Of a stretch of DNA of 39,166 nucleotides, positions 6,640-31,976 are shown piece by piece. Origin of the DNA: an uncultured archaeon (GTDB taxonomy: Archaea > Asgardarchaeota > Lokiarchaeia > Sigyniarchaeales > SOKP01); contig CAZWEM010000046.1 in assembly GCA_964632315.1 (NCBI GenBank), positions 1-39,166 of the forward strand, given 5' to 3'. The notes beneath the pieces were generated by a model that was not told the DNA's origin, made no database searches, and worked only from the letters and a program-made list of their open reading frames with translations. Numbering within the stretch: position 1 is the stretch's first letter; every line of letters starts with the position of its first letter. The translations under genes and the position numbers were made by a program.

Positions 6640-6736
6640 CAAGCTTGAATTTAATAGTGGGTCATCATTCCCTAGAAAGAATTGATAAGCTTAATAATCT
6701 GTTCCAAATTATTAGTTAAAGATTTAAAGGTCATTT
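6640..6736 (+). repeat. Degenerate direct-repeat copy A of the arcE upstream region (copy B at 9278-9383)
   Basis: Manual alignment: 11 mismatches over the first 77 nt, then a ~10 nt indel, then a shared TAAAGATTTAA..GTCATT. Confidence 0.85.
6658..6672. promoter_or_regulatory. TGGG-N8-CCC box inside repeat copy A
   Basis: TGGGTCATCATTCCC. Confidence 0.5.
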
Positions 6737-7370
6737 ATAAGAAAAGAAAAAATTAGTATTGCGAATCTATACAATTAGATATCATTCCTAGTTCCTCAAA
6801 TGCGTAAGGATCTTTTAATAGATGATAAGCAAGTGAAGTTGAAGATTTTGAAGCTTCTTTTTGAAAATTTTTTCTTTTTTTGTTCAAGTCTCTCTCATAA
6901 TAATATAATTTGATCTACAGAATCCTGAAAATCCTTTCTTTTAGATATTATTCCAGATTATTAATCTAAGTAAAAAGTAGAGAAAGTATTAAAAGATGGG
7001 GATTTAAGGAGGCTAATCTTAAAAGAATTTCAACATTTAAATCTTAATTAAAAAAAAAATTTATCTCTGCTAATTTATTATGAATTAGAACAATTTAACG
7101 TTAAATATAAATATCATCATTACTTATCTTACTACAGATGCGAAAAAAAATTTCAGATATGTGAAATTTTTAAGTTTAAGATTTACTTCTTGATTTTTTT
7201 CTTTTATCATCCTTAATTGTTTCGACAATGAAAATAGACAAATACCATATACCTTATTGAGAGTAAATCTTTAAATTTAATGATAATATAAGATTTAATT
7301 TATTCGTGTTTCAATGAAAATTAATAAGACAGTGTATAGTAAATTTAAATAGAATAATAAAAAGAGAAGC

Positions 7371-7574
7371 ATGATAATTATAGAGAAAGATTTAAAAAAA
7401 TTTGTTGATTATAATAAAAAGAATGGACTTTTATATGACAACTTGTATATAAACGACATTAAATTTGTTATCAAAACAGCCTTCCAAGATTCAAGGAAAG
7501 AAGGGTCAATAAACAATATTAGAATTGCCAAATTTAATTTAACGGATACAATATATCTTGCTAATTATGATTAA
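7371..7574 (+). CDS. Small hypothetical ORF, possibly a gene fragment
   Basis: 67 aa with a purine-rich leader. A coding-like stretch (KNNLDKYNSLFNKSRDLDNIYDDTKPHIFNI*) continues in another frame to ~7695. Confidence 0.4.
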   Translation: MIIIEKDLKKFVDYNKKNGLLYDNLYINDIKFVIKTAFQDSRKEGSINNIRIAKFNLTDTIYLANYD

Positions 7575-7713
7575 AGAAGCTTGATTGAATAATTAAATCT
7601 AAAAATAATTTAGATAAGTATAATTCTTTGTTTAATAAAAGTAGGGATCTTGATAATATTTATGATGACACCAAACCACATATTTTTAATATTTAAAAAG
7701 AGGTATAAGATGA

Positions 7714-8616
7714 ATGAAAATACAAACAGAAAATTATTGTAATGTTTTGAGAAAATATCCTTTCTCATTATTTGAAATGGATGGATCATTGGAAATATGG
7801 CAGAAAATATATTCTCCTTACATAGATTCAATCGAAAGTAAAATTAATATCTCAAAAAATAATTCAATTAAGATATTTAGAAATCATAATTTTGCATTTG
7901 ATAATGAACTTCAGCAACGAATTGCTGATTTAATTATAAATGAAGTTGAGGATCAGAATTCTATTTCGAAAAGTTCAGGAAATTATTTTGAAAAACTAGA
8001 TGAAAAAATTAGAATTGAGGATCAATATTCTGAAGAAGTAGAAAAAAAAAACAGTAATCTAAAAATCACATTCGTTTTTACAAATAAGAAAATGCAACCA
8101 TTAAGATTAATTCAGATGCTTAAATTAACTGGTGAAGTAGAGAAGTTTACTCAATTACTGCATAAAAACGAGCTTAAACAACATTCTAAGATAGTCCCGC
8201 AAATTATCTTTATATCCCTATTTGGTTTCGAAGCCTCAGTAAGAGACTATCTAAGAGATAACCTTTATGGAAAATTAAATAGAAATATTTCAATTTTAGT
8301 TGTCCCACCTATCGATAATAAATTATGGAATAACTACTTTATAAAAGATCCAATGGAAGATAATGAAAAGCATAATTCGGGAATTAGTTTCGAAAGGTTT
8401 AATAATTTGAGAAAGAATGGAGCAGTAAATCAATTGCAAGTAAAAAGAATGGAGACTTACTATAAGGATTTAAAAGATACTAAACAGATCATAGAAGATA
8501 ATTTTCAAGAGTTAAATACTTGGGCAGATGTCTTGAGCATTAATGATTCTCCCACACTATTGAATTTAGAAAAATCAAGGAATAAAATTAAGGATGAACT
8601 AAAAATAAAAAATTAA
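7714..8616 (+). CDS. Hypothetical protein, possible divergent restriction-endonuclease-like fold
   Basis: 300 aa open frame in very AT-rich DNA with GAGGT upstream; segments RIADLII and IIFISLFGF. Confidence 0.7.
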   Translation: MKIQTENYCNVLRKYPFSLFEMDGSLEIWQKIYSPYIDSIESKINISKNNSIKIFRNHNFAFDNELQQRIADLIINEVEDQNSISKSSGNYFEKLDEKIRIEDQYSEEVEKKNSNLKITFVFTNKKMQPLRLIQMLKLTGEVEKFTQLLHKNELKQHSKIVPQIIFISLFGFEASVRDYLRDNLYGKLNRNISILVVPPIDNKLWNNYFIKDPMEDNEKHNSGISFERFNNLRKNGAVNQLQVKRMETYYKDLKDTKQIIEDNFQELNTWADVLSINDSPTLLNLEKSRNKIKDELKIKN

Positions 8617-8841
8617 AACAAGGGGAATGAAACTATTTAATTAGATTTTGTAATTCTTTAATCTCAGAAATTTCATTTATACTTAACTCTAACTCTTCTA
8701 TTGAATCTAAATTAGTATTGAGGTTGTCAATAACTGATATTTTATTATTTCTGAGGAATCTATTTATAATAGCCTCTTAGTCGAGTGAACATAAATTATT
8801 TTGTTGCCCATTTGGCAAGTTTCATGTAACATCGAATTGTC

Positions 8842-9186
8842 TTAGCCTGGTCTTGTAATGGCGTAAAAGTCATAATTGAATTCTTTAACTATTTCGTAAT
8901 GCTGCGAGAATTCGTCGTGTCTTGAAAGCACTTTTTGAGCTTTTGGAGGGACAACAGATTGCTCGTACTCCTCTCCTGCAAATTCTTTTACAGCACTCAA
9001 GTTATCAAATATCATCATGGTGATAAATTCAACTTCATCTTTCAACGAGCGCTTTAAAAGACTCATTTTCCGATACCCCTTTATGTGTCTATTTTTAATG
9101 TATGGAAATATTTCATTTAGAAGTAAATTTTCGTAGGTATCAGCGTTCTCATGCGTGGTCCAGCCATGCCAGATTCTTGCTATCAT
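8842..9186 (-). CDS. Antibiotic biosynthesis monooxygenase-like (dimeric alpha+beta barrel) protein
   Basis: MIARIWHGWT..ADTYE, EVEFIT, AVKEFAGEEYEQSVVPP, HYE. Start placed at the ATG of MIAR. Confidence 0.8.
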   Translation of the reverse strand: MIARIWHGWTTHENADTYENLLLNEIFPYIKNRHIKGYRKMSLLKRSLKDEVEFITMMIFDNLSAVKEFAGEEYEQSVVPPKAQKVLSRHDEFSQHYEIVKEFNYDFYAITRPG

Positions 9187-16489: not shown

Positions 16490-17422
16490 ATGGTTAGACA
16501 TTTACTTAAGGTATCAGATCTTTCAAGATCAGAATGTGAACTCATAATAAACAAAGCAATTGATATTAAAAAAAATCCAAATAAATATTATAATTCCTTA
16601 GAGCACGAAACTCTTCTTATGCTTTTTGAAAAACCTTCTTTACGAACAAGAATTTCCTTTGAAACTGGAATGAATCAACTAGGAGGGCATGCAATATTTT
16701 ATTCAATTAAGGATTCACCTTTAGGAAAAAAAGAAAATATATCTGATACTTCCATAGTTGCTTCGAGGTTTGTAAATATCATTGCAGCTCGTGTCTTCAA
16801 AAGGCAAGACATTTGGGATCTCGCTAAATATGCTAGTGTCCCTGTGATCAACATGTTAGATGATTTCGCACATCCCTGTCAAATATTAGGAGATTTTCTT
16901 ACAATAAAAGAGAAGAAGGGTAAACTTGATGGATTTAAACTTGCTTACTACGGAGATGCTCATAATAATGTAACATACGACTTGATGAGAATGGCGGCTA
17001 TATTTGAGTTAGAAATGGATGTTGCTTGTCCAATGGGTTCGGAATACATGCCTGAAGATATTGTACTTGAAGAAGTAAAAAATCTTTCTAACAATTCTGG
17101 AGCAAAAGTAAGAATCATTCATAATGCTGAAGAAGCTGCACACTCTGCTAATGTTATATATACAGATAGTTGGATGTCATACGGTATTCCAAAAGATAAA
17201 GAAGAAGAACGGGTAAAGGCTTTTAATCCTTATCAAGTTACTAATGAAATATTGGATTTAGCAAATTCAGATGTAATATTCATGAATTGTTTACCCGCTA
17301 TGCGTGGATATGAACAAACAGCTGAAGTTATTGATGGACCACATTCAGTAGTTTTCGATCAAGCCGAAAATCGGTTACACATTCAAAAGGCAATTATGCT
17401 CTTTCTCAGAGGGAAATTCTAA
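16490..17422 (+). CDS. argF: Ornithine carbamoyltransferase
   Basis: FEKPSLRTR, HPCQ, YTDSWMS, FMNCLPA, FDQAENRLH. Confidence 0.96.
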   Translation: MVRHLLKVSDLSRSECELIINKAIDIKKNPNKYYNSLEHETLLMLFEKPSLRTRISFETGMNQLGGHAIFYSIKDSPLGKKENISDTSIVASRFVNIIAARVFKRQDIWDLAKYASVPVINMLDDFAHPCQILGDFLTIKEKKGKLDGFKLAYYGDAHNNVTYDLMRMAAIFELEMDVACPMGSEYMPEDIVLEEVKNLSNNSGAKVRIIHNAEEAAHSANVIYTDSWMSYGIPKDKEEERVKAFNPYQVTNEILDLANSDVIFMNCLPAMRGYEQTAEVIDGPHSVVFDQAENRLHIQKAIMLFLRGKF

Positions 17423-17508
17423 TAGCAATAACGCAAAATTTATAATTTTACCTATAATATTATTATTTTTCAAATTAACAATTTTAGAGTTGATATATAA
17501 TAGAAACA

Positions 17509-18414
17509 TTGATCATTGCGCTTGGCGGAAATGCCCTAATAAAGTTTGGAGAAGAAGGAACCACCGAAGAACAGTTTAAGAATTTAAGAGTTCCAATGTC
17601 ACAAATAGCTGAGCTTTCAAGAGAATATAATATTGTAATCACTCATGGAAACGGCCCCCAGGTTGGAATGCTTCTCATGCAACAAGAAGCAACTCAAGAG
17701 GTCTCAAAGAGACCACTACAAGTGTTAGTAGCAGAGACACAAGGACAAATTGGGTACATGATCGAATCGACGTTAGATGAAGAATTGATGAAGATCGGTC
17801 AAGATGAGCAAAAACTTTTTCTTACTGTTCTCACGTATGTTAAGGTTGACCCAGAAGATCCGGCTTTTCATAATCCTACAAAACCAATTGGACCTGCTTA
17901 TCCCCAACCAAAACCGGGCTATGTAAAGACTAACAAGGGATGGCGTCGAGTAGTCCCCTCTCCTAAACCTAAGAAAATCTACCAATGGAGAGAGATCAAG
18001 AGATTAATGGAATTAGGGAGTTGGATTGTCATTGCTTGCGGAGGAGGGGGAATTCCAGTAATCAAAGAGGGAAAAAGGTTATCTGGAGTTGAAGCAGTGA
18101 TTGATAAAGATTTAGCAAGTTCCAAGTTAGGAGAGCAAATCGGAGCCGATATTTTATTAATTGCTACCGATGTAGAAAAAGTTGCCCTTAATTATGGCAC
18201 ATCTGAACAAAAATTTCTTGATAACATTTCAATTAAAGAGGCATTAAAATACTTGGAAGAGAACCAATTTCCAGCTGGAAGTATGGGTCCAAAGGTTCAA
18301 GCTGTTGTAAATTTTCTCCAAACTGGTGGTAAAAGAGCGATTATTACTTCTATTGATAAGATCAAAGAAGCCTTAAAAGGAGAAGCAGGAACCCACTTCT
18401 ATATTGAAAAGTAG
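17509..18414 (+). CDS. arcC: Carbamate kinase (start uncertain: TTG 17509 or ATA 17500)
   Basis: IALGGNAL, THGNGPQVG, PTKPIGP, WRRVVPSP, GGGGIPV, EAVIDKD, GSMGPK. Confidence 0.96.
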   Translation: MIIALGGNALIKFGEEGTTEEQFKNLRVPMSQIAELSREYNIVITHGNGPQVGMLLMQQEATQEVSKRPLQVLVAETQGQIGYMIESTLDEELMKIGQDEQKLFLTVLTYVKVDPEDPAFHNPTKPIGPAYPQPKPGYVKTNKGWRRVVPSPKPKKIYQWREIKRLMELGSWIVIACGGGGIPVIKEGKRLSGVEAVIDKDLASSKLGEQIGADILLIATDVEKVALNYGTSEQKFLDNISIKEALKYLEENQFPAGSMGPKVQAVVNFLQTGGKRAIITSIDKIKEALKGEAGTHFYIEK

Positions 18415-18477: not shown

Positions 18478-19737
18478 TTATTTAATTAGGACGTTTTCTA
18501 TTATACCTAATGCCCAGTCTATTTGTTCCTTCGTTATCACAAGAGGAGGGGCAAATCTAATAATCGTGGAATGAGTATCTTTAGCTAAAATACCATTATC
18601 CTTTAATTCTTCCACGATAGGTCTAGCATTTACTTTAAATTCTAGAGCAATCAATAAACCTTTCCCTCTAACTTCTTTTACAGGAATTTTTGGACCTTTA
18701 GCAACGATTTTTTTTAAGCCTTCCAAAAAATAGGTCCCATTTTCTTTTGCTCTCTGCGCTAGATGATCCTCAATGTGAACTTCAAGTGATTTAGTTCCCA
18801 CTGCGGCTGCAATTGGATTGCCTCCAAATGTTGAACCGTGTGTCCCAGGTTTAATAACATCTGGTCCAATAATATCTTTATTAGCTACTACAGCTGAAAC
18901 TGGATACACTCCTCCACCTAATGCTTTTCCTAATAACAACATATCCGGTTTAACATTTTCGTGATCGCAGGCAAATAATTCACCCGTCCTTCCAAACCCC
19001 GTTTGAATTTCATCAGCTATCATTAAGACATTATATTTTGAGCATATTTCTCTAACTTTTTTGATGTATCCTTCAGGAGGAATATTTATCCCAGCTTCTC
19101 CTTGTATCGGTTCGAAGATGAATCCAGCTACTCTTTCAGGTCCTATTTCAAGGATAATATTCTCTAAAATCTCTGCCATTCCATAGGGAATTATCGTGAA
19201 ACCTGGAGTGTACGGTCCAAAGTTACCATAATACCGTACAGCAGATATATCAGTACTTATTCCTACAATAGTGATGGATCTTCCATGGAAATTATTTCGA
19301 CATACTATAATTTGAGCGTCGTTCTTAGGAATTTTCTTCTTAATATATCCCCACGCTCGAGCAACTTTCAATCCAGTTTCAACAGCTTCAGTACCAGTGT
19401 TCATGGGGAGAGCCATTATCCCTGAATTATTTGGATCATTTAAGTGAGGTCCAACAACTTCACACAATTTCTTTATAAATGGCCCCATTACATCATTATG
19501 AAACGCTCTAGAGGTGAGAGTTACTTTATCTGCTTGTTCTTTTAAGGCTTTAATAATATCTGGATGTCTATGTCCCGTATTTTGACTTGAATAGGCTGAT
19601 AAACAATCTAGATATTTATTTCCTTCCGGATCCCATACCCATACTCCTTCAGCTTTACTAATAACGACGGGAATGGGGTGGTAATTGTGAGCACAATATT
19701 CAAGGTCCATATCAATATAATCTTTTGTTCCTGGCAA
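18478..19737 (-). CDS. rocD: Ornithine--oxo-acid aminotransferase (class III PLP)
   Basis: AHNYHP, YLDCLSAYS, LTSRAF, PMNTGTEAVET, EPIQGEAG, DEIQTGFGRTG, LGKALGGG, HGSTFGGNP. Confidence 0.93.
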   Translation of the reverse strand: MPGTKDYIDMDLEYCAHNYHPIPVVISKAEGVWVWDPEGNKYLDCLSAYSSQNTGHRHPDIIKALKEQADKVTLTSRAFHNDVMGPFIKKLCEVVGPHLNDPNNSGIMALPMNTGTEAVETGLKVARAWGYIKKKIPKNDAQIIVCRNNFHGRSITIVGISTDISAVRYYGNFGPYTPGFTIIPYGMAEILENIILEIGPERVAGFIFEPIQGEAGINIPPEGYIKKVREICSKYNVLMIADEIQTGFGRTGELFACDHENVKPDMLLLGKALGGGVYPVSAVVANKDIIGPDVIKPGTHGSTFGGNPIAAAVGTKSLEVHIEDHLAQRAKENGTYFLEGLKKIVAKGPKIPVKEVRGKGLLIALEFKVNARPIVEELKDNGILAKDTHSTIIRFAPPLVITKEQIDWALGIIENVLIK

Positions 19738-19945
19738 ATTATATCACATTTTTTGATTAAAACACTAATTTTCTAATAGTGTAAATGGTAGATTCCGTTA
19801 AAAGTTTAAGCGTTTATGAGGGAAATATTTGGGAACTCATCATGAATCGGTAAGAGCTCTTAAAAGATGGAATATGGATCTACTTGGTATATTTATAAAT
19901 CATAGAACCCAAGTATCACATATTAAGAGTTATCAATTAAACACT

Positions 19946-21268
19946 ATGCCTATTAAAATATCAAACAAGCTGATCTTCAACATTGTCATCGCAAACCTTT
20001 TTTGGAGTTTTATACCGATAGTTGTAAAAGGATTATTTGCTGATATTTCTATTCTTACTGTTATTTTTCTCAGATTTCTTACTGGAGGGATTGTATTATT
20101 TTTGATTGCCATTCTTTTAATCATCATCAACAATCGCCTTAATATTGACAAAAAAATATCACTTAAACAACTATTTGTAAATTTAAGGCATAAAAATCGA
20201 AGATTTTATGATGTGAGAACTTATCAATATTATTTTCTCATTGGATTTTTCGGTATTATCCTACACATTATTTTTTATTTTTTAAGTCTTAAAACGACAT
20301 CTATTCCTTTCACAATGATAGGATCGCTTCTAACAATAATTTTTATAGCTTTTTACGAAAAGGGGGTCAATTTTGAAAGGTTTGATGTGTTTAGAATATT
20401 ATTTATTACAATAATATCGTTTGCAATCATTATTATCATGTTTGTTTCATTTATGGGAGGTCAAATATCTGGAAACCCTATCCAAGTGCAAGGCTTTATC
20501 TATATCCTCTTATATTCAATAACAGGTTCATTTTTATATATCAGCATTGATAGAGATTCATTTTCAAAGAATGAATTGAGAGACATTAACATAAACAAAT
20601 ATTACAAAATTCCTCGTTCTTTACTTAAAATGGCAATCTCATTTGTCTCTGGAGTCTTGTTTCTCCTTCCAGTTTTATTGATCATTAATATCTTGCCTGT
20701 AGAGATGGATATTACTCAAGAAACACGTGCTTTCTTTTCTGATTTATCATCAATTTTTTCGATACTACAAAGATGGGAAATTATCTATCTTATAGTATTT
20801 GCTACGATTATACCGTATTTATTAATCTTCTTGGCAAACGTTAGTTGGAAATCTAAGAGTTTAACTTATAGCCAATGGAGTAGCATCATTGGGATCATTG
20901 ATCCAATGAATACATTAATTTTTTCCGTGATTTTGGTTGGTACTTATTTCCCCTCTCAGGATTTGTTAGTTGTAATAATATTCCTAGGAATTGCTATCAT
21001 TTTACGATATGCCCATGAAGTAAGGAACATTGTTCAAGCGGTTGTATTCTTGAAAATAAAGAAAGCAAGTTTGAAGACGCTCCCTATAAGAATTTTAAAG
21101 TTTTATGGCGTAAGAAAAATAGATACCTTAATTGGACGATATGATCTAATGCTAACGGTAAAAGTAAATTCCTTTAAAGATTTTCACTATTTGATTAATA
21201 AAAATTTAAAACCTATGAACGAAATTGAAATTATAGAACCACAATTTATCAATAATATTGAGATTTAA
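19946..21268 (+). CDS. DMT/EamA-type transporter with C-terminal Lrp/AsnC ligand-binding (RAM) domain
   Basis: About 10 TM helices with EamA hallmarks (LFWS, IFLRF, YFLSLK, IDP); C-terminal QAVVFLKIK..GVRKIDTLIGRYDLMLTVKV. Start placed at ATG 19946 (MPIK) rather than TTG 19829. Confidence 0.8.
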   Translation: MPIKISNKLIFNIVIANLFWSFIPIVVKGLFADISILTVIFLRFLTGGIVLFLIAILLIIINNRLNIDKKISLKQLFVNLRHKNRRFYDVRTYQYYFLIGFFGIILHIIFYFLSLKTTSIPFTMIGSLLTIIFIAFYEKGVNFERFDVFRILFITIISFAIIIIMFVSFMGGQISGNPIQVQGFIYILLYSITGSFLYISIDRDSFSKNELRDININKYYKIPRSLLKMAISFVSGVLFLLPVLLIINILPVEMDITQETRAFFSDLSSIFSILQRWEIIYLIVFATIIPYLLIFLANVSWKSKSLTYSQWSSIIGIIDPMNTLIFSVILVGTYFPSQDLLVVIIFLGIAIILRYAHEVRNIVQAVVFLKIKKASLKTLPIRILKFYGVRKIDTLIGRYDLMLTVKVNSFKDFHYLINKNLKPMNEIEIIEPQFINNIEI

Positions 21269-21283
21269 TAATAGAGGGCGAAA

Positions 21284-21523
21284 ATGAGAGCCATAATTTT
21301 ATGTAAACTAGGTATTAATGTGATCAAGAAAGTAATTGAGGAACTCAAATCAATACCCCAAGTCAAGAAGGTAATGTCCTTGACGGGCGATTATGATGTA
21401 CTCGTTGAGGTAGAAGTCGAAAACTCTGAAGAGTTATTTGAAATTTTCTCTGAAAAAATAGACATGATTGAAGGCATAATAGCATCTAACACCCATGTAA
21501 TTATGAAAGCGTGGGAGAAGTAA
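21284..21523 (+). CDS. Stand-alone Lrp/AsnC ligand-binding (RAM) domain protein, no HTH
   Basis: MRAIILCK..ELKSIPQVKKVMSLTGDYDVLVEV..IEGIIASNTHVIM, 79 aa. Confidence 0.92.
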   Translation: MRAIILCKLGINVIKKVIEELKSIPQVKKVMSLTGDYDVLVEVEVENSEELFEIFSEKIDMIEGIIASNTHVIMKAWEK

Positions 21524-21532
21524 GAAGAGGAA

Positions 21533-22081
21533 TTACCTGTTTATTTTTGAGAGAACACCTGTTAAGAGGTTGGAAAAGGCTTTTTCTACGTTATCACCCG
21601 ATTTGGCGCTTGTTTCGATGAAATCTCTAGCCTTAATTTTTTCAGCTACCGTTTTACCTTCTTTAGTTGTTATCCCTCTTGAGCCTTCTAAATCACTTTT
21701 ATTTCCAATTAATAAGAATGATGCATTTTCTTTACCGTATGTAATAAGATCCGGATACCATTTAGACTCCACACTTTCCAAGGTGGAAGGTCTTGTTAAA
21801 TCGTAAACAAAAAGCGCTCCAGAACATCCTTGAAAAAACATCCTGCGAGAAAGCTCATAACGTTCTTGACCTGCTATGTCCCAAATAATTAATTTCACTT
21901 TTAGGTTCTTTTCTTTTACTTCAATATCCTTAATCAGAATGTTAACCCCTAATGAAGCGTTGTATTGCTCATTAAACTTATGATGAATGTATTGATCAAT
22001 GAGCGAAGTTTTTCCTGTAGCTGGGTCTCCTAAAAGGGCTATTTTATACATTAAATCGGTTTTCTCGGGTTCAGACATCAC
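21533..22081 (-). CDS. Rab-like small GTPase (Ras superfamily, Asgard type)
   Basis: G1 GDPATGKTS, G3 WDIAGQE, G4 GNKSD, G5 ETSAK; RabF-like KLIIW; no C-terminal Cys motif. Confidence 0.95.
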   Translation of the reverse strand: MMSEPEKTDLMYKIALLGDPATGKTSLIDQYIHHKFNEQYNASLGVNILIKDIEVKEKNLKVKLIIWDIAGQERYELSRRMFFQGCSGALFVYDLTRPSTLESVESKWYPDLITYGKENASFLLIGNKSDLEGSRGITTKEGKTVAEKIKARDFIETSAKSGDNVEKAFSNLLTGVLSKINR

Positions 22082-22160: not shown

Positions 22161-23753
22161 TCAATATCCAATAGCTTGTCCATCTTTTCGAGGATCTGAA
22201 GCAGCTAAGTAACCTTCATCTAATTTATAGATTATTTGACCTCCTCCAAAATTGAAATATAGATCTTCCTTAATAGAATGACCCTTTCTAGTTAATTTAT
22301 TGATGCTATTCTTATTAAATTCACTTTCAACTTTAGCGTTCAACCCATTTATCACCCTCCAGCGAGGTGCATCTAACGCAGTTTGGGGATTTTGACCATA
22401 TTCAAAAATACGAATCATCATTTGAGCATGTCCTTGAGGCTGCATCTCTCCTCCCATCACGCCAAAGCTCATAATAGGCTTTCCTTTTTGAGTCACAAAT
22501 CCAGGAATTATGGTGTGAAATGGTCGCTTATTGGGTCCAACTTGATTAGGGTGACCTTCAATCAAGTTAAATCCATTTCCCCTATTTTGAAGGCTAATTC
22601 CAGTTCCGGGAATAACTATTCCAGATCCAAAGCCCATATAATTGGATTGAATGTATGAAACCATCATTCCGTCCTCATCAGCAGCAGTTAAATATACTGT
22701 ATCACCTTCTTTTGGGATCCCGTGTTTAAAGATTTCAGCGCGAGTTAAGTCTATTTCTAAAGCCCTGTGTTTCAAATAATCATCATCTAGTAAGTGCACA
22801 GGATCAAATTCCAAGGTTGAGGGATCGGAGATATATCGATATGCATCAGAAAATGCGAGTTTCATTGCTTCTAGTTGAATGTGAATCGCTTCAGGAGAAT
22901 CTGGGTCGAACTCACTAATATCAAAATTCTTCAAGATCCCCAACATGATTAATGCAGTTATACCTTGTCCATTTGGAGGAATCTCATGTAAAGTTACTCC
23001 TTTATAATCCATAGAAAGAGATTTTTCCCAACTGACTTTGTGATTTTCAAGATCTTGGAGTGTCATAACTCCCCCTGTATTTTCAGAATGAGATACAATC
23101 TTTTTTGCTAATTCTCCACTATAAAAGGCTTCACCTTTTGTTTGAGCAATCTTTCTTAGGGTTTCTGCTTGAGGAAGACACTTAAATAACTGACCAGGCG
23201 AGGGTGGTTTTCCATTGATCATGAATGTTTCATAAAATTCGGGATATAATCGTTTTTTATACATTTTAGCGAGATAACCCCATATCTCGGCTGTTACTGG
23301 AGAAACAATGAATCCTTTCTCAGCATACCTTATTGCTGGCTTAAATAATTCTTCAAATGATAATTGTCCATACTTATTTGATAATTCCACCCATGCGGAT
23401 ACTGCGCCTGGAATGGTAGTAGCATCCCAACCAAACATTGGCATTGATTTTCTGCGTGAAAAATACTCTGGAGTCCATGCAGCGGGAGATCTTCCAGAAG
23501 CATTCAAACCTTTAAGTGATTTTCCGTCCCAAATTAAAGCGAACGCATCACTACCAATTCCATTATTTACCGGTTCAACCACGGTTAGGGTGATAGCGGT
23601 CGCAATCGCAGCATCTACAGCATTACCTCCATTTAATAACATTTTTATACCAGCTTGACACGCAAGAGGTTGCGAAGTTGCGATAACATTTTCAGCTAGA
23701 ATAGGCATTCTACGAGAAGGATATTTAAAGTTCCATCCAAACTTTCCGAACAT
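22161..23753 (-). CDS. ggt: Gamma-glutamyltransferase family protein (cytoplasmic)
   Basis: ATSQPLA, GGNAVDAAIA, GLNASGRSP, catalytic GD/TVYL, RPFHTIIP, GVMGGEMQPQGH, SDPRKDG; no signal peptide. Confidence 0.94.
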   Translation of the reverse strand: MFGKFGWNFKYPSRRMPILAENVIATSQPLACQAGIKMLLNGGNAVDAAIATAITLTVVEPVNNGIGSDAFALIWDGKSLKGLNASGRSPAAWTPEYFSRRKSMPMFGWDATTIPGAVSAWVELSNKYGQLSFEELFKPAIRYAEKGFIVSPVTAEIWGYLAKMYKKRLYPEFYETFMINGKPPSPGQLFKCLPQAETLRKIAQTKGEAFYSGELAKKIVSHSENTGGVMTLQDLENHKVSWEKSLSMDYKGVTLHEIPPNGQGITALIMLGILKNFDISEFDPDSPEAIHIQLEAMKLAFSDAYRYISDPSTLEFDPVHLLDDDYLKHRALEIDLTRAEIFKHGIPKEGDTVYLTAADEDGMMVSYIQSNYMGFGSGIVIPGTGISLQNRGNGFNLIEGHPNQVGPNKRPFHTIIPGFVTQKGKPIMSFGVMGGEMQPQGHAQMMIRIFEYGQNPQTALDAPRWRVINGLNAKVESEFNKNSINKLTRKGHSIKEDLYFNFGGGQIIYKLDEGYLAASDPRKDGQAIGY

Positions 23754-23856: not shown

Positions 23857-24171
23857 TTGAAAACAAGCACTAACAATTTTACTTTAACGGGGTCCTTAGT
23901 TGACGGAGATAATACATATGAATATATAGGGAAAATCGAATTTAATTCTGATAAGGTTTTACAACATGTTCACGATGAGAGGGGACAAAAAAATTTAGGT
24001 GCTATAGTACGTATCGAACGTTATATTTGGGATTTAACCTATACAGCAGGCACGGGTTCATTACCAAATGGAACCAGTGGAGCAATTCCAGGATATCCTG
24101 CCTTGCTAATAATTTCGATATTGATAATCGATATGATGATTATAATCTGGAAGAAAAAGTTAATCAAGTGA
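23857..24171 (+). pseudogene. Probable C-terminal fragment of a surface protein with a Loki-CTERM-like sorting signal
   Basis: Gly/Ser/Thr linker then AIPGYPALLIISILIIDMMIIIWKKK; TTG start, no signal peptide, Asp within the TM segment. Confidence 0.55.
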
Positions 24172-24952
24172 ATTTCCTATTTTCTAATTCATTAATAAAA
24201 AAGCTTGCTACAATTTCAGCATAAGTTCCAGGTCCAAAACCAGCATCATATCCTAATTCCTTTGCCAATTCATTCGTAATTCTCGGTCCACCACAAATTA
24301 AGATTATTTTTTCTCTAATTCCTTCTGCTTCAAGTAAATCTACTAAATTAGTGAGATTTTTAACGTGGATATCTTTTTGAGTTACTGTTTGTGAAACTAA
24401 AAGAACATCTGCATCCAAACCGATTGCTTTTTTAACGAATTCCTCATTGCTGACTTGACTTCCCAAGTTATATATTTCAATCATTTCATATCTTTCAAGT
24501 CCATAATGACCGGCAAATCCCTTCATATTCATAATTGCATCAATGCCGACAGTATGAGCGTCAGTACCTGTGGTAGCTCCTAACACTACTAATTTTCTTC
24601 CAAAATGTTCTTTAATAAACTGATTAATCTCATCCATACTCATTGGTTTCACACCTAAAGATTCAACTTTAATTACTGTAAGATCAATAGTATGAATTAA
24701 TTCTCCATAGATGATGAAAAAAGTAAATTCTTTGTCAAGAGATTGATGATGTACCACCGAGGGATCTTGAATCCCCATTTTTTTAGCTAGAGCTATTGCT
24801 GCATAAAGAGCTTTTTCTCCATCTTCGATTGGAAGGGTGAAACTGATTTGAACTTCCCCATCATTCAATGTATCTCCATATGGTTTAATTCTCGTTGGAT
24901 CTATTTCCTTATCGTACTCTTTTTTATTAATAGAATAAAGGCCTCCACCCAT
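24164..24952 (-). CDS. kamE: Lysine 5,6-aminomutase beta subunit (B12-binding)
   Basis: KPYGDTLNDG, DAHTVG (DxHxxG), IMNMKG (PLP lysine), GHYGLERY, SQTVTQ, GYDAGFGPG. Confidence 0.96.
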   Translation of the reverse strand: MGGGLYSINKKEYDKEIDPTRIKPYGDTLNDGEVQISFTLPIEDGEKALYAAIALAKKMGIQDPSVVHHQSLDKEFTFFIIYGELIHTIDLTVIKVESLGVKPMSMDEINQFIKEHFGRKLVVLGATTGTDAHTVGIDAIMNMKGFAGHYGLERYEMIEIYNLGSQVSNEEFVKKAIGLDADVLLVSQTVTQKDIHVKNLTNLVDLLEAEGIREKIILICGGPRITNELAKELGYDAGFGPGTYAEIVASFFINELENRKFT

Positions 24953-26539
24953 TTATTTATCTCCTCCTAAACTTTCAATATTCAAATCCCGTGACATTGT
25001 TTCTAGAAATGGATTCAAGTAATCCTTATCTTTGATAATGACCCCCTCTAAACCTTTACCGCCATCAATTGGTCTCTTTATCCCTGCAAATATCCCTTTT
25101 TCAATTGTTTTGAAAAGTCCCTCTCTCTCTATGTTTTTTAAAAGATCAGTTGCTTGTTTTAACACTTCCTCTGCCCTTCGTTGAAGTATACCATTTTCTT
25201 TAAATTGAATCTCATTTCCCAAATCCTTCATATTGTTAAAGATATATCGAGCATTTTCAATGGATAGTGCCCTATCTGACATAAAAGGAGTATGAATTGC
25301 CTCTGTTAACATTCCAAGAAGGTGAATTCTTTGATTTGTAAGGATTGTGACCATATTAAAAAGGGCGTCTTGAACATGACCTTTAAAGATATTACCCGTC
25401 ATAAATTTGGTAGGTGGCATGTACTTTAATGGTGCTTTTGGAAAGATCTCGCGAGCCATTTGAGCTTGAGCCAATTCATATAAAAAACCATTTTCTAATT
25501 CAGGGTTCATTTCAAAGGCATGTCCCAAACCCATTTGTTCTTCAGATAATCCAGCTAATTTAGCAAATTGCTCATTGATGAATTGAGATGCTAACACTGT
25601 ATCAGCGGCTTCGTAGGCATCATCAGTAGTTAAATAGTTATCTTCTCCCGTGTTGATAATTACTCCCGCATAGGCGTTGATCATTCTGGAGAAATGTTGA
25701 TCAATTATCGTTCTTTGCATGTTTATATCTCTGAACAAAATTCCGTATAAGGCATCATTAAGCATCATATCCAATCGTTCCAAAGCGCCCATAGCAGCAA
25801 TTTCGGGCATACATAATCCTGAACAATAATTTGTCAAGCGGATGTACCTTCCTTGTTCTTCACTAACTTCATCTAAAGCAGTCCTCATGAGTCGAAAATT
25901 TTCTTGTGTCGCAAAAGTACCACCAAATCCTTCAGTGGTACTACCATATGGAACATAATCCAATAAGCTCTGTCCCGTAGATCTTATCACAGCAATTACA
26001 TCAGCACCTTGTCTTGCAGCTGCCTTAGCTTGGACGATATCCTCAAAGATATTCCCCGTTGCTACTATTAAATATATCAACGGTTCATTTTTTTCTCCAT
26101 ACTTTTTGATTAAATCCTCCCTAGTTTGCTTGTTTCGTTTAATGATCTCCAGATTTTTACTAATAATTGAGAGCAATGCTTTTTTGATTTCAGGTAATTC
26201 CTCCCAAGAAAGTTCTGCTAGATTTAATTGACCTTGGTAAACTCTTTCAGCAATATCTTGAGGGGACAAATTTGTATGTAAAATTGCATTACCTAAATAT
26301 AGTGCAACTCCCTTGTTTATTTGACCCTTTTTAATTACATGATCTACAACGACATTGGGCAATGGTACTCCAAATTCGTCCGTACCGTTAATGCCTAATA
26401 ATCTACATATAGTTCTCTCTATAGAGGTTGTAGTATGTTGGTCTATGAATTTCTGAATATCAATAACTATTTTTTTGGCAATTTTCCTAGCATCATCTAC
26501 CAATTTAAAGTTCAAATTCAACTTATTTTTTACTCCCAT
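24953..26539 (-). CDS. kamD: Lysine 5,6-aminomutase alpha subunit
   Basis: VATGNIFED, AVIRSTGQSLLDYVPYG, NYCSGLCMPE, NTGEDNYLT, KYMPPTK, GMLTEAIHTP; abuts kamE. Confidence 0.96.
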   Translation of the reverse strand: MGVKNKLNLNFKLVDDARKIAKKIVIDIQKFIDQHTTTSIERTICRLLGINGTDEFGVPLPNVVVDHVIKKGQINKGVALYLGNAILHTNLSPQDIAERVYQGQLNLAELSWEELPEIKKALLSIISKNLEIIKRNKQTREDLIKKYGEKNEPLIYLIVATGNIFEDIVQAKAAARQGADVIAVIRSTGQSLLDYVPYGSTTEGFGGTFATQENFRLMRTALDEVSEEQGRYIRLTNYCSGLCMPEIAAMGALERLDMMLNDALYGILFRDINMQRTIIDQHFSRMINAYAGVIINTGEDNYLTTDDAYEAADTVLASQFINEQFAKLAGLSEEQMGLGHAFEMNPELENGFLYELAQAQMAREIFPKAPLKYMPPTKFMTGNIFKGHVQDALFNMVTILTNQRIHLLGMLTEAIHTPFMSDRALSIENARYIFNNMKDLGNEIQFKENGILQRRAEEVLKQATDLLKNIEREGLFKTIEKGIFAGIKRPIDGGKGLEGVIIKDKDYLNPFLETMSRDLNIESLGGDK

Positions 26540-26611
26540 AGTCTTAAGACCTTAAACAGAAAATTAGTTTTCTTAGAATTATGTGCTTTAATAATTCAAG
26601 CAAATTATATT

Positions 26612-27664
26612 TTAGTATTTACTTGGTCCAAGATCGTAAATTGGAATAGAAATTCCTTTTTCTAATTCGCTTAAGAATTTAGACTTGTTAAATTGATATC
26701 CTAAGGGTGAAGTAGGATTAATTGTAAGAATAAGGACTCGAATCTGATTCAAAACCCGTATTGTCCCTCCTTTTTTCAAATATTGTTCAAAAACACGTTT
26801 ATTCAGAAATAGTTTAGTAGCATCTGGAACAAGAATCTTAATGTTTTTATAATAATCAGTCTTTTTCATGAATTCTTCTAGGAATTTGTCTGTAATGGCT
26901 CCATTTATCACTAAATATCGTGATGAGGGGCTAATTTCTTGTAATATTTCTTCAACGGAACCTAATGCAGTAGGCAAGGGTAATGTTCTTGTTGAATTAT
27001 TTTCATCAATGATTCCAATTTTTGTATTTAAAATAAGTGTATTGGCTAATTTCACGATTAGAGGGTTTTGCTCTTTTTCTACCCCCAATAAATTAATTGT
27101 ATGATGGGTAAGATTTATGACTTCATTCATTTTTTTTGAGACTGAAGCGCCAGTAGATAATATTGTTGCATGAGATATTAAAGGAGATGCATAAGAACGT
27201 CGATCAAAAGCACCATCAATAAGCACTATATCACATCCTAAATGAAGTAAATAATTGCATACTTGTTTCAATTCGGAATTAATTGAAGGTCCAGCTAATT
27301 CGACTAACCCACTACCTAAAGTTCGAACAATCTGAATCTCACCCATAGGTGTGTTGATTCCTGTCTTTTTTACTACTTTCGATTTTACTTCGCTATTTTC
27401 TAAGCTTTGCTGAGCTGTTGCTAAGTAAGTTCCCTCTTCAATCTTTATGCGTGGTTTTGGCATGTTGGTAATAGCGTCATATTTTTCTCCATCTCTTCCA
27501 ATTGAAGTAAGCCCTAGTTTATACTCTCCTTTTAGAACTTGGATGATGTGATTTAAAGTTGTTGTTTTGCTCACATTTTTTGCAAGACCGATAATTGAAA
27601 TGATCTTATATTGTTTTACAACAGTTTTAATTAAATCGGTGAATTCCATAACGAAATTACTCAT
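26612..27664 (-). CDS. kamB: KamB-like lysine 5,6-aminomutase accessory/reactivase subunit
   Basis: ISIIGLAKNVSKTTTLN (P-loop-like), GLTSIGRDGE, PKPRI, LAGP, LIDGAFDR, ILSTGA; directly upstream of kamD. Confidence 0.75.
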   Translation of the reverse strand: MSNFVMEFTDLIKTVVKQYKIISIIGLAKNVSKTTTLNHIIQVLKGEYKLGLTSIGRDGEKYDAITNMPKPRIKIEEGTYLATAQQSLENSEVKSKVVKKTGINTPMGEIQIVRTLGSGLVELAGPSINSELKQVCNYLLHLGCDIVLIDGAFDRRSYASPLISHATILSTGASVSKKMNEVINLTHHTINLLGVEKEQNPLIVKLANTLILNTKIGIIDENNSTRTLPLPTALGSVEEILQEISPSSRYLVINGAITDKFLEEFMKKTDYYKNIKILVPDATKLFLNKRVFEQYLKKGGTIRVLNQIRVLILTINPTSPLGYQFNKSKFLSELEKGISIPIYDLGPSKY

Positions 27665-30737: not shown

Positions 30738-31976
30738 TTATTTACTTAATTTTCTTTTTCTTATATTTCGCTCTAGATCTTCGGGTTCTATTGTCATCTT
30801 TTCTCCACTTAATAATGCAGATACTCCAATTTGCTTTTCACAATCTTCGCAATGACAACTTGGTGAGTAATCAGTAGGTTCTTGATAAGTAGTAATTACA
30901 CCTTCAAAATTTCTCAGTACTACTCGACTATTTCCTTGAGATATGGTATAATCAGGCATAACTGGTATTTTTCCCCCTCCACCAGGTGCATCTACTACGA
31001 AGGTTGGCACGCAAAGCCCAGAAGTATGTCCCCGTAGGCCCTCAATGATTTCAATTCCTTGAGCAACGCTCGTACGAAAATGTCCAAGGCCAATTGACAA
31101 ATCACACTGATATATATAATAGGGGCGTACCCGGATTTTTACTAACTCATGAACCAGTTTTCTCATGACATGAATACAATCATTCACACCACGGAGTAAT
31201 ACCGATTGATTACCCAAAGGAATACCAACATCAGCTAACATTGCACAAGCGCGTGTTGATTCTTTAGTAATTTCGTTTGGATGATTAAAGTGCGTGTTAA
31301 ACCATATAGGATGATATTTTTTGAGCATTTCACACAATTCTGGAGTAATTCTCTGGGGCATTACAACGGGTGATCTAGAACCAAGCCGTACGATTTCCAC
31401 GTGAGGTATTTCTTTTAACTTAATTAAAATCTGTTCGAGTATATTGTCTGAAATTAGCATGGCATCTCCCCCAGATAAGAGAACATCCCTAATTTGAGAA
31501 TTCTCTCGAATATAAGCTAGCGCATTATCTATTTGAGATTGTGGTGGTGCCTTATCATGATGTCCAGCAAATCGTCTTCTTGTACAATGTCTACAATACA
31601 TCGAGCAATTTTCTGTGACTAAAAATAATACTCTATCAGGATAACGATGAGTTAATCCAGGAACAGGGGAATCTACATCTTCATGCAAGGGATCTTTTAG
31701 ATCTCCAGGATATTTTTTTAATTCATGAACAGTTGGGACAGCTTGCTTCCTAATAGGGTCATATGGGTCATGAGGATCAATCAAGCTTAGATAATATGGC
31801 GTGATTGCCATTCTAAGTGTTTCTAGGATTTTAGGATCGTCTTCTTCTTTCGTTAATGGGAGGTATTGTTTAAGTTCTTCAAGAGTGGTGATTCTATTCT
31901 TAAATTGCCATTTCCAGTTAGTCCATGCATCATCAGGAACATCTCCAAATATTTCCATTCGTCTATTTACTCTCAT
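30738..31976 (-). CDS. kamA: Lysine 2,3-aminomutase (radical SAM, PLP)
   Basis: WTNWKWQ, DPLHED, LTHRYPDR, CSMYCRHCTRRR, LLSGGD, PYYIYQCD, DAPGGGGK, C-terminal Zn site CHCEDC. Confidence 0.97.
   Translation of the reverse strand: MRVNRRMEIFGDVPDDAWTNWKWQFKNRITTLEELKQYLPLTKEEDDPKILETLRMAITPYYLSLIDPHDPYDPIRKQAVPTVHELKKYPGDLKDPLHEDVDSPVPGLTHRYPDRVLFLVTENCSMYCRHCTRRRFAGHHDKAPPQSQIDNALAYIRENSQIRDVLLSGGDAMLISDNILEQILIKLKEIPHVEIVRLGSRSPVVMPQRITPELCEMLKKYHPIWFNTHFNHPNEITKESTRACAMLADVGIPLGNQSVLLRGVNDCIHVMRKLVHELVKIRVRPYYIYQCDLSIGLGHFRTSVAQGIEIIEGLRGHTSGLCVPTFVVDAPGGGGKIPVMPDYTISQGNSRVVLRNFEGVITTYQEPTDYSPSCHCEDCEKQIGVSALLSGEKMTIEPEDLERNIRKRKLSK

Follow-up and report, generated by a model that had tools for sequence, protein, structure and literature searches.

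A DMT/EamA-fold membrane protein with a fused RAM domain and a stand-alone RAM partner in Asgard archaea: a candidate transporter with built-in amino-acid sensor

In this study we analyzed a two-gene module of an Asgard archaeon (Lokiarchaeia; Sigyniarchaeales; SOKP01) which, judged by sequence, joins known parts in an uncharacterized combination. It is located on contig CAZWEM010000046.1 of assembly GCA_964632315.1, whose entire 39,166 nt are referred to as the window. Gene A (19946-21268, plus strand) encodes a 440-aa membrane protein of the DMT/EamA fold with a C-terminal RAM domain, as indicated by Pfam, AF2, Foldseek and 207 homologues. Gene B (21284-21523, plus strand) encodes a 79-aa stand-alone RAM protein. 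We propose that the products of both genes would form a secondary transporter into which an amino-acid sensor is built, the carrier being under allosteric control of a composite sensor made of the RAM domain of A and of B. To this reading we assign about an even chance. The architecture suggests an uncharacterized type of switch by which cellular amino-acid levels act on a transporter.

Both open reading frames were found as first described. The frame of A is open from 19829, and the ATG at 19946 agrees with the N-termini of the homologues. The 15-nt spacer between the stop of A and gene B (21269-21283, plus strand) contains a GAGGG at 21274-21278, located 5 nt before the ATG of B, which is consistent with co-transcription of the two genes; the gaps between A and B in other genomes are likewise short. 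Upstream, A is divergent from rocD (18478-19737, minus strand), which encodes an ornithine-oxo-acid transaminase (TIGR01885, 517 bits, cut-off 378). According to the ORF map and the sequence, the intergenic region at 19738-19945 is presumed to hold the promoters.

The membrane protein and its fused RAM domain

The membrane domain of A comprises residues 1-362 (19946-21031, plus strand) and is predicted to contain ten TM helices in an N-in/C-in orientation, based on the AF2 helices, the charge count and Foldseek. Residues 10-165 match EamA PF00892 in Pfam with 36.3 bits (cut-off 28.2), a match also found at E<0.01 in 62 of the 78 family members, while the second EamA repeat was undetected by sequence. 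The AF2 model, which was built from a 78-sequence alignment, has ten long TM helices with a pLDDT of 89.3 and a pTM of 0.87; it replaced an earlier run on a 16-sequence alignment (pLDDT 62, below 50 in the RAM part). In Foldseek the plastid TPT (5y78), SLC35B1 (9i20) and the bacterial LicB (7paf) and YddG (5i20) were matched with a probability of 1.0 and a TM-score by target of 0.64-0.69, and 5oge and 6ukj were hit with a probability of 1.0 as well. A sequence search of solved structures with the full-length profile of A returned RAM proteins only and no DMT carrier. Therefore, the DMT assignment is based on the first Pfam repeat together with the fold. A search of NCBIfam gave no family for A. 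Taken from sequence and model, A is a 10-TM DMT-fold membrane protein with a predicted role as carrier.

A shares the ten-helix fold, built of two halves with five helices each, with these DMT/EamA carriers at an identity of 11-16% and differs from them by three long extra loops and the C-terminal RAM domain. The matched DMT chains are 255-350 residues long, and in Foldseek none of them extends over the RAM part of A. We know of no DMT carrier of solved structure that bears a regulatory domain in the cytoplasm. Lys and Arg residues number 25 in the predicted inner segments of A versus 4 in the outer loops, which places the RAM domain in the cytoplasm. One of the three loops that are absent from ordinary DMT proteins is the charged insertion remarked on in the initial annotation; it spans residues 201-228 between TM6 and TM7 (20546-20629, plus strand), is predicted to be cytoplasmic and is near-invariant in the close family. 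R224 and K228 of this loop are at least 90% conserved among the 78 members. The long TM2-TM3 loop (residues 62-93; 20129-20224, plus strand), which like the former was delimited by alignment, topology and AF2 and is assigned to the cytoplasm, carries a conserved HKNRRF motif whose N84 is conserved throughout the family. The same holds for E144, R224, K228, W301, W311, R354, Y355, E358, G397 and D400. Overall, the conserved residues concentrate on the cytoplasmic face and in the RAM domain, more than in the outer loops. Moreover, R43, T287, P290 and P320 are conserved polar or proline residues within the TM helices.

The C-terminal part (residues 363-440; 21032-21265, plus strand) had been proposed to be a RAM domain. 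In Pfam, residues 371-433 reach 18.9 bits against AsnC_trans_reg PF01037 and thus stay below the cut-off of 25, with 71 of the 78 family members matching at E<0.01. Despite this score the RAM fold is borne out, since the family profile, the AF2 model and Foldseek agree. The C-terminal profile of the A family matched the solved RAM proteins DM1 and FL11 with an E-value of 7e-15 and the profile of B with an hhalign probability of 98.9%. DSSP assigned a beta-alpha-beta-beta-alpha-beta order to residues 363-434 of the model, which was superposed by Foldseek on DM1 (2e1a) with a TM-score of 0.92 and an rmsd of 1.0 Å over 73 residues; across 2e1a and 2cvi the rmsd was 1.0-1.2 Å. On profile and model evidence, then, the sub-threshold match is genuine. 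In the AF2 model the helix 337-361 (TM10) continues straight into the strand 363-371, with a flexible linker being absent.

Column counts in the fused domain addressed the residues of the ligand-backbone motif. In the G-x-x-D motif the glycine (G397) is present in 78/78 and the aspartate (D400) in 73/78 sequences. At the Ser/Thr-x-Thr positions, which lie on strand 4, A has Ile 430 and Pro 432; across the family these positions are mostly hydrophobic, with Ser or Thr in 4/78 and 2/78 members, respectively. As the Asp is kept and the Ser/Thr-x-Thr is lost, half of the motif is retained in the fused RAM domain.

The stand-alone RAM protein and the modelled complex

B matches PF01037 with 56.4 bits. 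With Pfam at E<0.1, neither A nor B showed an HTH family, while one is present in full-length Lrp genes at other sites of the genome. This agrees with the earlier description of B as a 79-aa RAM protein without HTH. In the PDB, the profile of B matched FL11 at 2.9e-15, DM1 at 1.2e-12 and also STS042; against stand-alone RAM proteins the E-values ranged from 1e-12 to 1e-9. B has the same size and fold as DM1 of Pyrococcus horikoshii (2e1a, 2cvi), STS042 (2zbc) and TTHA0845 (2djw). A and B further share the effector domain of the Lrp/AsnC (FFRP) regulators FL11, Grp (ST1022), LysM and AsnC. Since both are devoid of an HTH, neither belongs to the transcription factors of the family.

B keeps the residues of both motif halves, namely G35, D38, S68 and T70. 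In the column counts D38 was present in 16/17 sequences, Ser or Thr at position 68 in 15/17 and Thr or Ser at position 70 in 17/17, and the Ser/Thr-x-Thr is retained even in members with about 20-28% identity. D38, S68 and T70 of B correspond in an ungapped alignment to D102, T132 and T134 of Grp, which bind glutamine across subunits (PMC2504300). In NCBIfam B gave sub-threshold matches only, to the RAM parts of LysM, LrpA and AsnC; these are too weak, and therefore we name no ligand for B. We also considered a recent duplication of the fused RAM domain as the origin of B. Between the two profiles the identity is only 16%, and both match generic RAM proteins about equally, so that duplication is not claimed.

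The initial annotation had suggested that the fused and the free RAM domain interact. This idea gained backing from a complex model of A and B, which scored 0.70 versus 0.00 for the best of three controls; among solved complexes 58 of 80 attain this mark, among mismatched pairs 2 of 110. At least 98% of the contacts agreed between runs, and the partner pLDDT was at least 89. In the modelled interface, which is like that of solved RAM dimers, strand 2 of one chain faces strand 4 of the other. The model thus supports a canonical RAM beta-sheet heterodimer of the fused domain and B, in terms that apply equally to A-A or B-B homodimers. Because RAM dimers have already been solved, the pass may merely reflect likeness to known structures.

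A purely structural role of the RAM pair has to be considered at this point. The pair would assemble or stabilize the carrier by dimerizing or capping it, ligand binding would be lost, and B would be needed solely to cover the beta-sheet that is left unpaired in a lone RAM domain. The loss of the Ser/Thr-x-Thr half in the fused domain is in line with this, as is the generic dimer seen in the complex model, and a lack of amino-acid binding has been predicted for some RAM proteins (PMC2995911). However, the Asp that contacts the ligand is kept in 73/78 fused and 16/17 free domains, and the Ser/Thr-x-Thr is preserved in B even at about 20-28% identity; this would be difficult to account for if no ligand were bound. 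We therefore consider a purely structural role unlikely.

Proposed control of the carrier and related systems

In RAM proteins the pockets sit between subunits and ligands alter the oligomeric state (PMC2995911). For DM1 it was described that amino acids are bound between dimers and that hetero-octamers with FL11 form in vitro (PMC2995911). According to the allosteric reading, the fused RAM domain and B would pair via the canonical beta-sheet dimer, and the pocket would obtain its Asp half from the fused domain and its Ser/Thr-x-Thr half from B. As the fused domain has the Asp half only and B would supply the Ser/Thr-x-Thr, complete pockets would arise only in the mixed assembly. Occupancy by cytoplasmic amino acids may then shift the RAM assembly, and via its rigid connection to TM10 and the conserved loops on the cytoplasmic side this shift could open or block the carrier. 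Uptake would thereby be subject to feedback or trans-inhibition, or a valve for efflux or exchange would be activated. Speaking against this reading, some archaeal RAM proteins answer to other metabolites or are predicted to be non-binders of amino acids (PMC2995911).

Similar connections between sensor and transporter have been described. In Pseudomonas aeruginosa, PA2577 and PA2576 are divergent genes for a Lrp/AsnC regulator and an EamA transporter, and the HTH regulator represses the transporter gene (PMC8707732). Both this system and A/B tie a RAM-type sensor to an EamA-type transporter. There the tie is transcriptional, whereas the sensor domain of A lies within the transporter polypeptide itself, which implies post-translational control. 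In this respect the arrangement recalls transporters that are governed by small ferredoxin-like sensors or fused regulatory domains, such as AmtB-GlnK, SbtA-SbtB and the C-terminal domain of MetNI. Their logic appears alike, as an adjacent or fused sensor of the beta-alpha-beta type docks on the cytoplasmic face depending on a metabolite. However, the families involved (PII, ABC) are unrelated to A and B, which combine one fused and one free copy of the sensor. The analogy thus indicates a possible working mode of A/B and not family membership. Should this mechanism prove true, A would be, to our knowledge, the first carrier of the DMT superfamily to have an allosteric sensor built in, and would add a new case of post-translational control of amino-acid transport. 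The physiological role of stand-alone RAM proteins has been called unclear in a review on archaeal Lrp proteins (PMC2995911). Here a stand-alone RAM would gain a concrete role, if the reading is true, by completing the pockets of a RAM domain with half a motif. B differs from the DM1-type proteins in its fixed genomic partner, which is a membrane protein instead of a regulator that binds DNA.

Sequestration of regulators at the membrane, as in AmtB-GlnK and PtsG-Mlc, offers a further comparison. By this model A would mainly sense, as transceptor or membrane anchor, and its RAM domain would hold or release B or full-length Lrp-type regulators depending on the ligand and so relay amino-acid availability to transcription. 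Genes for several full-length Lrp-type proteins occur in the genome, and the cytoplasmic face of A is conserved above the outer loops. Hetero-oligomers in which a free RAM protein joins a full-length Lrp regulator also exist in vitro (PMC2995911), which favors such a relay. On the other hand, A has a complete DMT carrier fold with R43, T287, P290 and P320 conserved inside the helices, and the rigid attachment of the RAM domain in the AF2 model suits allostery on the carrier. Tethering of a DNA-binding regulator had been put forward in the initial annotation and is not indicated by the sequence, because A and B are both HTH-less. Besides, a link to a TGGG-N8-CCC box had been suggested. The window contains five matches to this box versus 1.45 expected, at 6658, 9296, 13078 and 32036/32037; all are away from the promoter region of A (19738-19945), and none is near A or B. 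The box was thus rejected as a link to the module; as a proposed operator, it is missing from the promoter of A. We judge the relay to transcription improbable. A more specific version, in which the A RAM domain and B form a ligand-dependent ring that swaps subunits with Lrp-type regulators of full length, and amino-acid flux at the membrane thereby sets transcription directly, seems slightly less probable still; if true, stand-alone RAM proteins would be shuttling signal subunits. We therefore favor allosteric control of the carrier, and A and B are small enough for direct biochemistry.

Genomic neighborhood, distribution and pairing

As noted in the initial annotation, the module is flanked by genes of amino-acid metabolism, which Pfam and TIGR matches confirmed. 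Beyond the divergent rocD lie the genes for ornithine carbamoyltransferase (OTC) and carbamate kinase (arcC) at 16490-18414 on the plus strand (Pfam OTCace; TIGR00746, 372 bits, cut-off 358). Downstream of the A-B pair follow KamE and KamD of lysine 5,6-aminomutase and the reactivase KamB at 24164-27664 on the minus strand (Pfam OAM_dimer plus B12-binding, Lys-AminoMut_A and LAM_C; NF052386 for KamB), and KamA at 30738-31976. It may be speculated from these flanking pathways that the cargo or effector in this clade is a basic amino acid, i.e. ornithine, arginine or lysine. In the closer family members the module is situated between ATP-yielding arginine/ornithine catabolism and lysine fermentation, and this position makes it a candidate for controlling how Asgard archaea of the Lokiarchaeia type feed on amino acids. 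Of 37 species-representative loci, 24 have rocD at a distance of no more than 3 kb from A. The rocD/arcC and lysine-fermentation neighborhood is confined to the closer members; it is gone in members with 39-47% identity and in the distant subfamilies.

The EamA-RAM fusions form a small and distinct family with 92 representatives among 1.84 billion proteins. Nearly all named members are Asgard archaea, to which one Spirochaetota MAG is added, and two look-alike ESM Atlas clusters carry a Thermoplasmatota label. An alignment of 31 distant members was devoid of any segment with sufficient conservation for a search. Profile searches with distant subgroups gave no match in genome contigs for a six-member subgroup and the core Asgard family only for a five-member subgroup. 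As these searches added nothing, the Thermoplasmatota label derives solely from the taxa of the ESM Atlas clusters. A literature search, with subscription journals outside its scope, returned no description of a DMT/EamA-RAM fusion, which is in agreement with the first impression that the architecture is uncharacterized.

The two genes were syntenic in every locus that could be checked. Among loci of sufficient length, B adjoins A in 22/22; among species-representative loci that extend more than 94 nt downstream, it does so in 36/36. The pair is kept with differing other neighbors in the Spirochaetota MAG, on one contig where B precedes A, and in Harpocratesius, in which A is accompanied by two free RAM proteins. 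This conservation bears on the possibility that A and B function independently, the RAM domain of A homodimerizing and thereby dimerizing the carrier, and B being a cytosolic sensor in its own right that has only its transcription in common with A. RAM domains readily homodimerize, and the complex model made no comparison of hetero- and homodimers. Nevertheless, the adjacency survives in all checked loci and across domains of life while all other neighbors change, B is the only HTH-less RAM ORF of its kind in the genome, and the complementary motif loss fits shared pockets. Independent functions are accordingly regarded as quite improbable, the least likely of the readings discussed here. The adjacency of A and B extends to members with about 20-28% identity, again among other neighbors, and distant members that are devoid of the Arg/Lys neighborhood still keep B.

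Architecture of the two-gene module

The ORF map places gene A at 19946-21268 and gene B at 21284-21523, both on the plus strand, with B starting 15 nt past the stop of A and a GAGGG motif 5 nt before its ATG. The frame of A is open from 19829, 117 nt (19829-19945) before the ATG at 19946, which agrees with the N-termini of 15 aligned homologues. The public gene call begins at 19874 and gives 464 aa; judged by the alignment, this start is probably too early. Pfam recognized the RAM domain (AsnC_trans_reg, PF01037) in B with 56.4 bits and no HTH, and the initial description of B as an HTH-less protein of 79 aa was therefore confirmed.

The C-terminus of A is a RAM domain, as had been proposed. 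In A itself Pfam detected EamA at residues 10-165 (36.3 bits, cut-off 28.2) and AsnC_trans_reg at residues 371-433 with a sub-threshold 18.9 bits (cut-off 25). Among 78 full-length family members PF01037 was matched by 71 and EamA by 62. Moreover, a profile built from 32 C-termini of the family found the solved stand-alone RAM protein DM1 (2cvi, 2e1a) at E 7e-15 and FL11 at E 2e-12, and hhalign aligned it to the free-partner profile with a probability of 98.9% (E 1.4e-17).

A first AF2 model of A, built on 16 sequences, had a low pLDDT of 62 and was superseded by one from 78 sequences (pLDDT 89.3, pTM 0.87). The latter comprises ten long helices, and helix 337-361 passes straight into strand 363-371 of the RAM domain, after which come helix 379-384, strands 389-394 and 401-407, helix 410-421 and strand 427-434. 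A Foldseek search of the PDB returned the DMT carriers TPT (5y78), SLC35B1 (9i20), LicB (7paf), YddG (5i20), Vrg4 (5oge) and PfCRT (6ukj), each with a probability of 1.0 and TM values by target of 0.53-0.69, as well as the RAM proteins 2e1a (TM 0.92, rmsd 1.0 Å) and 2cvi (0.86, 1.2 Å). With ten helices, 25 Lys and Arg residues fall in predicted inner segments versus 4 in outer loops, which places the RAM domain in the cytoplasm. Ordinary DMT proteins have a membrane part about 60 residues shorter, and the extra length of A sits in loops 62-93, which carries an HKNRRF motif, 201-228 and 250-278. The second is the inserted charged loop noticed initially; it is nearly invariant among close homologues (R203, D204, S207, E210, N215, Y220, P223, R224). 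Over the 78 members 22 positions are at least 90% conserved; 13 of these belong either to the RAM domain or to the cytoplasmic face (N84, E144, R224, K228, W301, L306, W311, S313, R354, Y355, E358, G397, D400).

Pairing, family range and genomic context

The initial annotation had made synteny elsewhere a touchstone of the pair, and it was found. Loci of four other genomes show A followed by a RAM gene of 79-81 aa. In a scripted scan B adjoined A on the same strand in 22/22 loci with enough downstream DNA, and B follows in 36 of the 37 species-representative loci where A is complete, the remaining one having just 94 nt downstream; these counts come from kin genomes and are not independent, so the cross-domain cases weigh most. 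A Spirochaetota MAG (JAFLEE010000006.1, locus 7001-8897) encodes a 541-aa family member and, downstream of it, a free RAM gene of its own (86 aa). A metagenomic contig has its RAM gene (83 aa) directly upstream of the A homologue, and in Candidatus Harpocratesius repetitus (locus 8444-8967) the fusion gene precedes a tandem of two free RAM genes, of 80 and 94 aa, which overlap by 4 nt. In all three of these distant members the pair persists among otherwise unrelated genes. The pair is the invariant of the locus, and the metabolic context is clade-specific. A rival reading is that A and B work independently of each other.

This context was described initially as a position between arginine and lysine clusters, which holds in the window but is not general. 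Ornithine carbamoyltransferase (16490-17422), carbamate kinase (17509-18414, TIGR00746), rocD (ornithine-oxo-acid transaminase, 18478-19737, minus strand, TIGR01885), gamma-glutamyltranspeptidase (22161-23753) and KamE, KamD, KamB and KamA were confirmed, and a Ras/Rab-like small GTPase gene (21533-22081, minus strand, Pfam Ras 154.6 bits) converges on B. Within the 37 loci rocD lies at most 3 kb from A in 24, and downstream of the pair KamE (9 loci) and the small GTPase (10 loci) alternate. Members of 39-47% identity have lost this setting and adjoin genes for a heterodisulfide-reductase-like protein, a U32 peptidase, an MscS channel or a sugar epimerase.

A word-based search yielded 207 homologues of A, and every named one carries an Asgard label (Promethearchaeota/Lokiarchaeota, Hermod-, Hod- and Thorarchaeota). 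When 1.84 billion representatives were searched exhaustively with a profile, just 92 proteins reached E<=1e-3. Some 40 of them are full-length (417-541 aa), mostly with the C-terminal domain retained; the family is therefore small and stands clearly apart from ordinary EamA proteins. By BLASTP 34 representatives all find one another over the full length and form about six subgroups. The Spirochaetota member is 41% identical to the metagenomic protein P0127, in a subgroup that also includes the Lokiarchaeal Harpocratesius protein, which suggests that both genes were transferred together between domains. The ESM Atlas added two look-alike clusters to which it gives the label Thermoplasmatota (feature score 0.96), and one of the two is also alike in shape (TM 0.69/0.72 across residues 6-440). 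Gene A is single-copy in the window's genome. Among 300 genomes sampled over the phylum it was found in 47/68 genomes of the family to which the window belongs, 4/7 in a second family and 3/3 in another; the remaining 27 families searched yielded no copy.

A proposed composite ligand pocket and its possible role

In the RAM pocket of Grp from Sulfolobus tokodaii, D102 hydrogen-bonds the ligand backbone nitrogen; T132 also takes part, as does T134, which a symmetry-related subunit contributes (PMC2504300). Grp and the B profile align at a constant offset (profile positions 13-77 onto chain residues 75-139), so that D38, S68 and T70 of B fall on D102, T132 and T134. The B family has Asp in 16/17, Ser/Thr in 15/17 and Thr/Ser in 17/17 members at these positions. 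The fused RAM domain keeps Gly397 (78/78) and Asp400 (73/78), but at its two positions in strand 4 Ile, Val, Leu or Tyr predominate. Different dimers contribute the strands and loops that build a RAM pocket (PMC2995911), and in a mixed assembly complete pockets could form only where B supplies strand 4. Such complementary motif loss would give a reason for an obligate free partner; a purely structural role of the RAM pair is a rival to this sensory reading.

Association of the fused and free RAM domains, raised in the initial annotation, is supported by a predicted complex of the A piece and B, which scored 0.70 against 0.00 for the best of three controls; the comparison was of the A-B pair with these controls, and since RAM dimers have already been solved the pass may reflect likeness to them. 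Of 80 solved complexes, 58 reached this mark, and of 110 mismatched pairs, 2 did. Three runs agreed in at least 98% of contacts with a partner pLDDT of at least 89. The modelled chains meet as in the canonical RAM dimer, with residues 37-47 and 79-88 of the A piece facing residues 69-79 and 27-37 of B.

Most likely, A is a DMT carrier with a cytoplasmic gate controlled by a composite amino-acid sensor of its RAM domain and B. The sensor would act on the gate by direct allostery, which fits because there is no linker between TM10 and the RAM domain and the cytoplasmic loops are conserved. From the neighbourhood, ornithine, arginine or lysine are reasonable guesses for the cargo of the close clade. 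Most of the characterised amino-acid carriers of EamA type in prokaryotes are exporters; the catabolic setting of this clade argues for uptake or exchange.

In a rival transceptor model A would swap RAM subunits with Lrp regulators. A possible link of the module to a TGGG-N8-CCC box had been raised initially, and it is not supported: the five matches in the window (1.45 expected; at least five in 3 of 100 shuffles), at 6658, 9296, 13078 and 32036/32037, lie ahead of arginine-cluster genes and near kamA, with none in 19738-19945 upstream of A and none near A or B.

Related fusions

The EamA and RAM parts are each known; their union and the fixed free partner are uncharacterised. The literature searched held no paper on a DMT-RAM fusion, NCBIfam has no model for A, and public annotations of the family, assigned automatically, read either 'EamA family transporter' or 'Lrp/AsnC ligand binding domain-containing protein'. 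The nearest described tie of the two families is transcriptional, with PA2577 repressing the EamA gene PA2576 (PMC8707732).

Two other Lrp-type fusions were seen outside the window. A 418-aa ORF (contig C16, 341-1597, minus strand) unites three domains, one of TBP type (Pfam TBP, residues 175-247, 59 bits), an HTH of Lrp type and a RAM domain at residues 339-407 (40 bits); from its domain matches, this joining of a TATA-binding-protein-like domain to an Lrp regulator looks unusual. On contig C7 (250-1122, plus strand) a 290-aa ORF has a response-regulator receiver domain ahead of a full Lrp/AsnC regulator with both HTH_AsnC and RAM.
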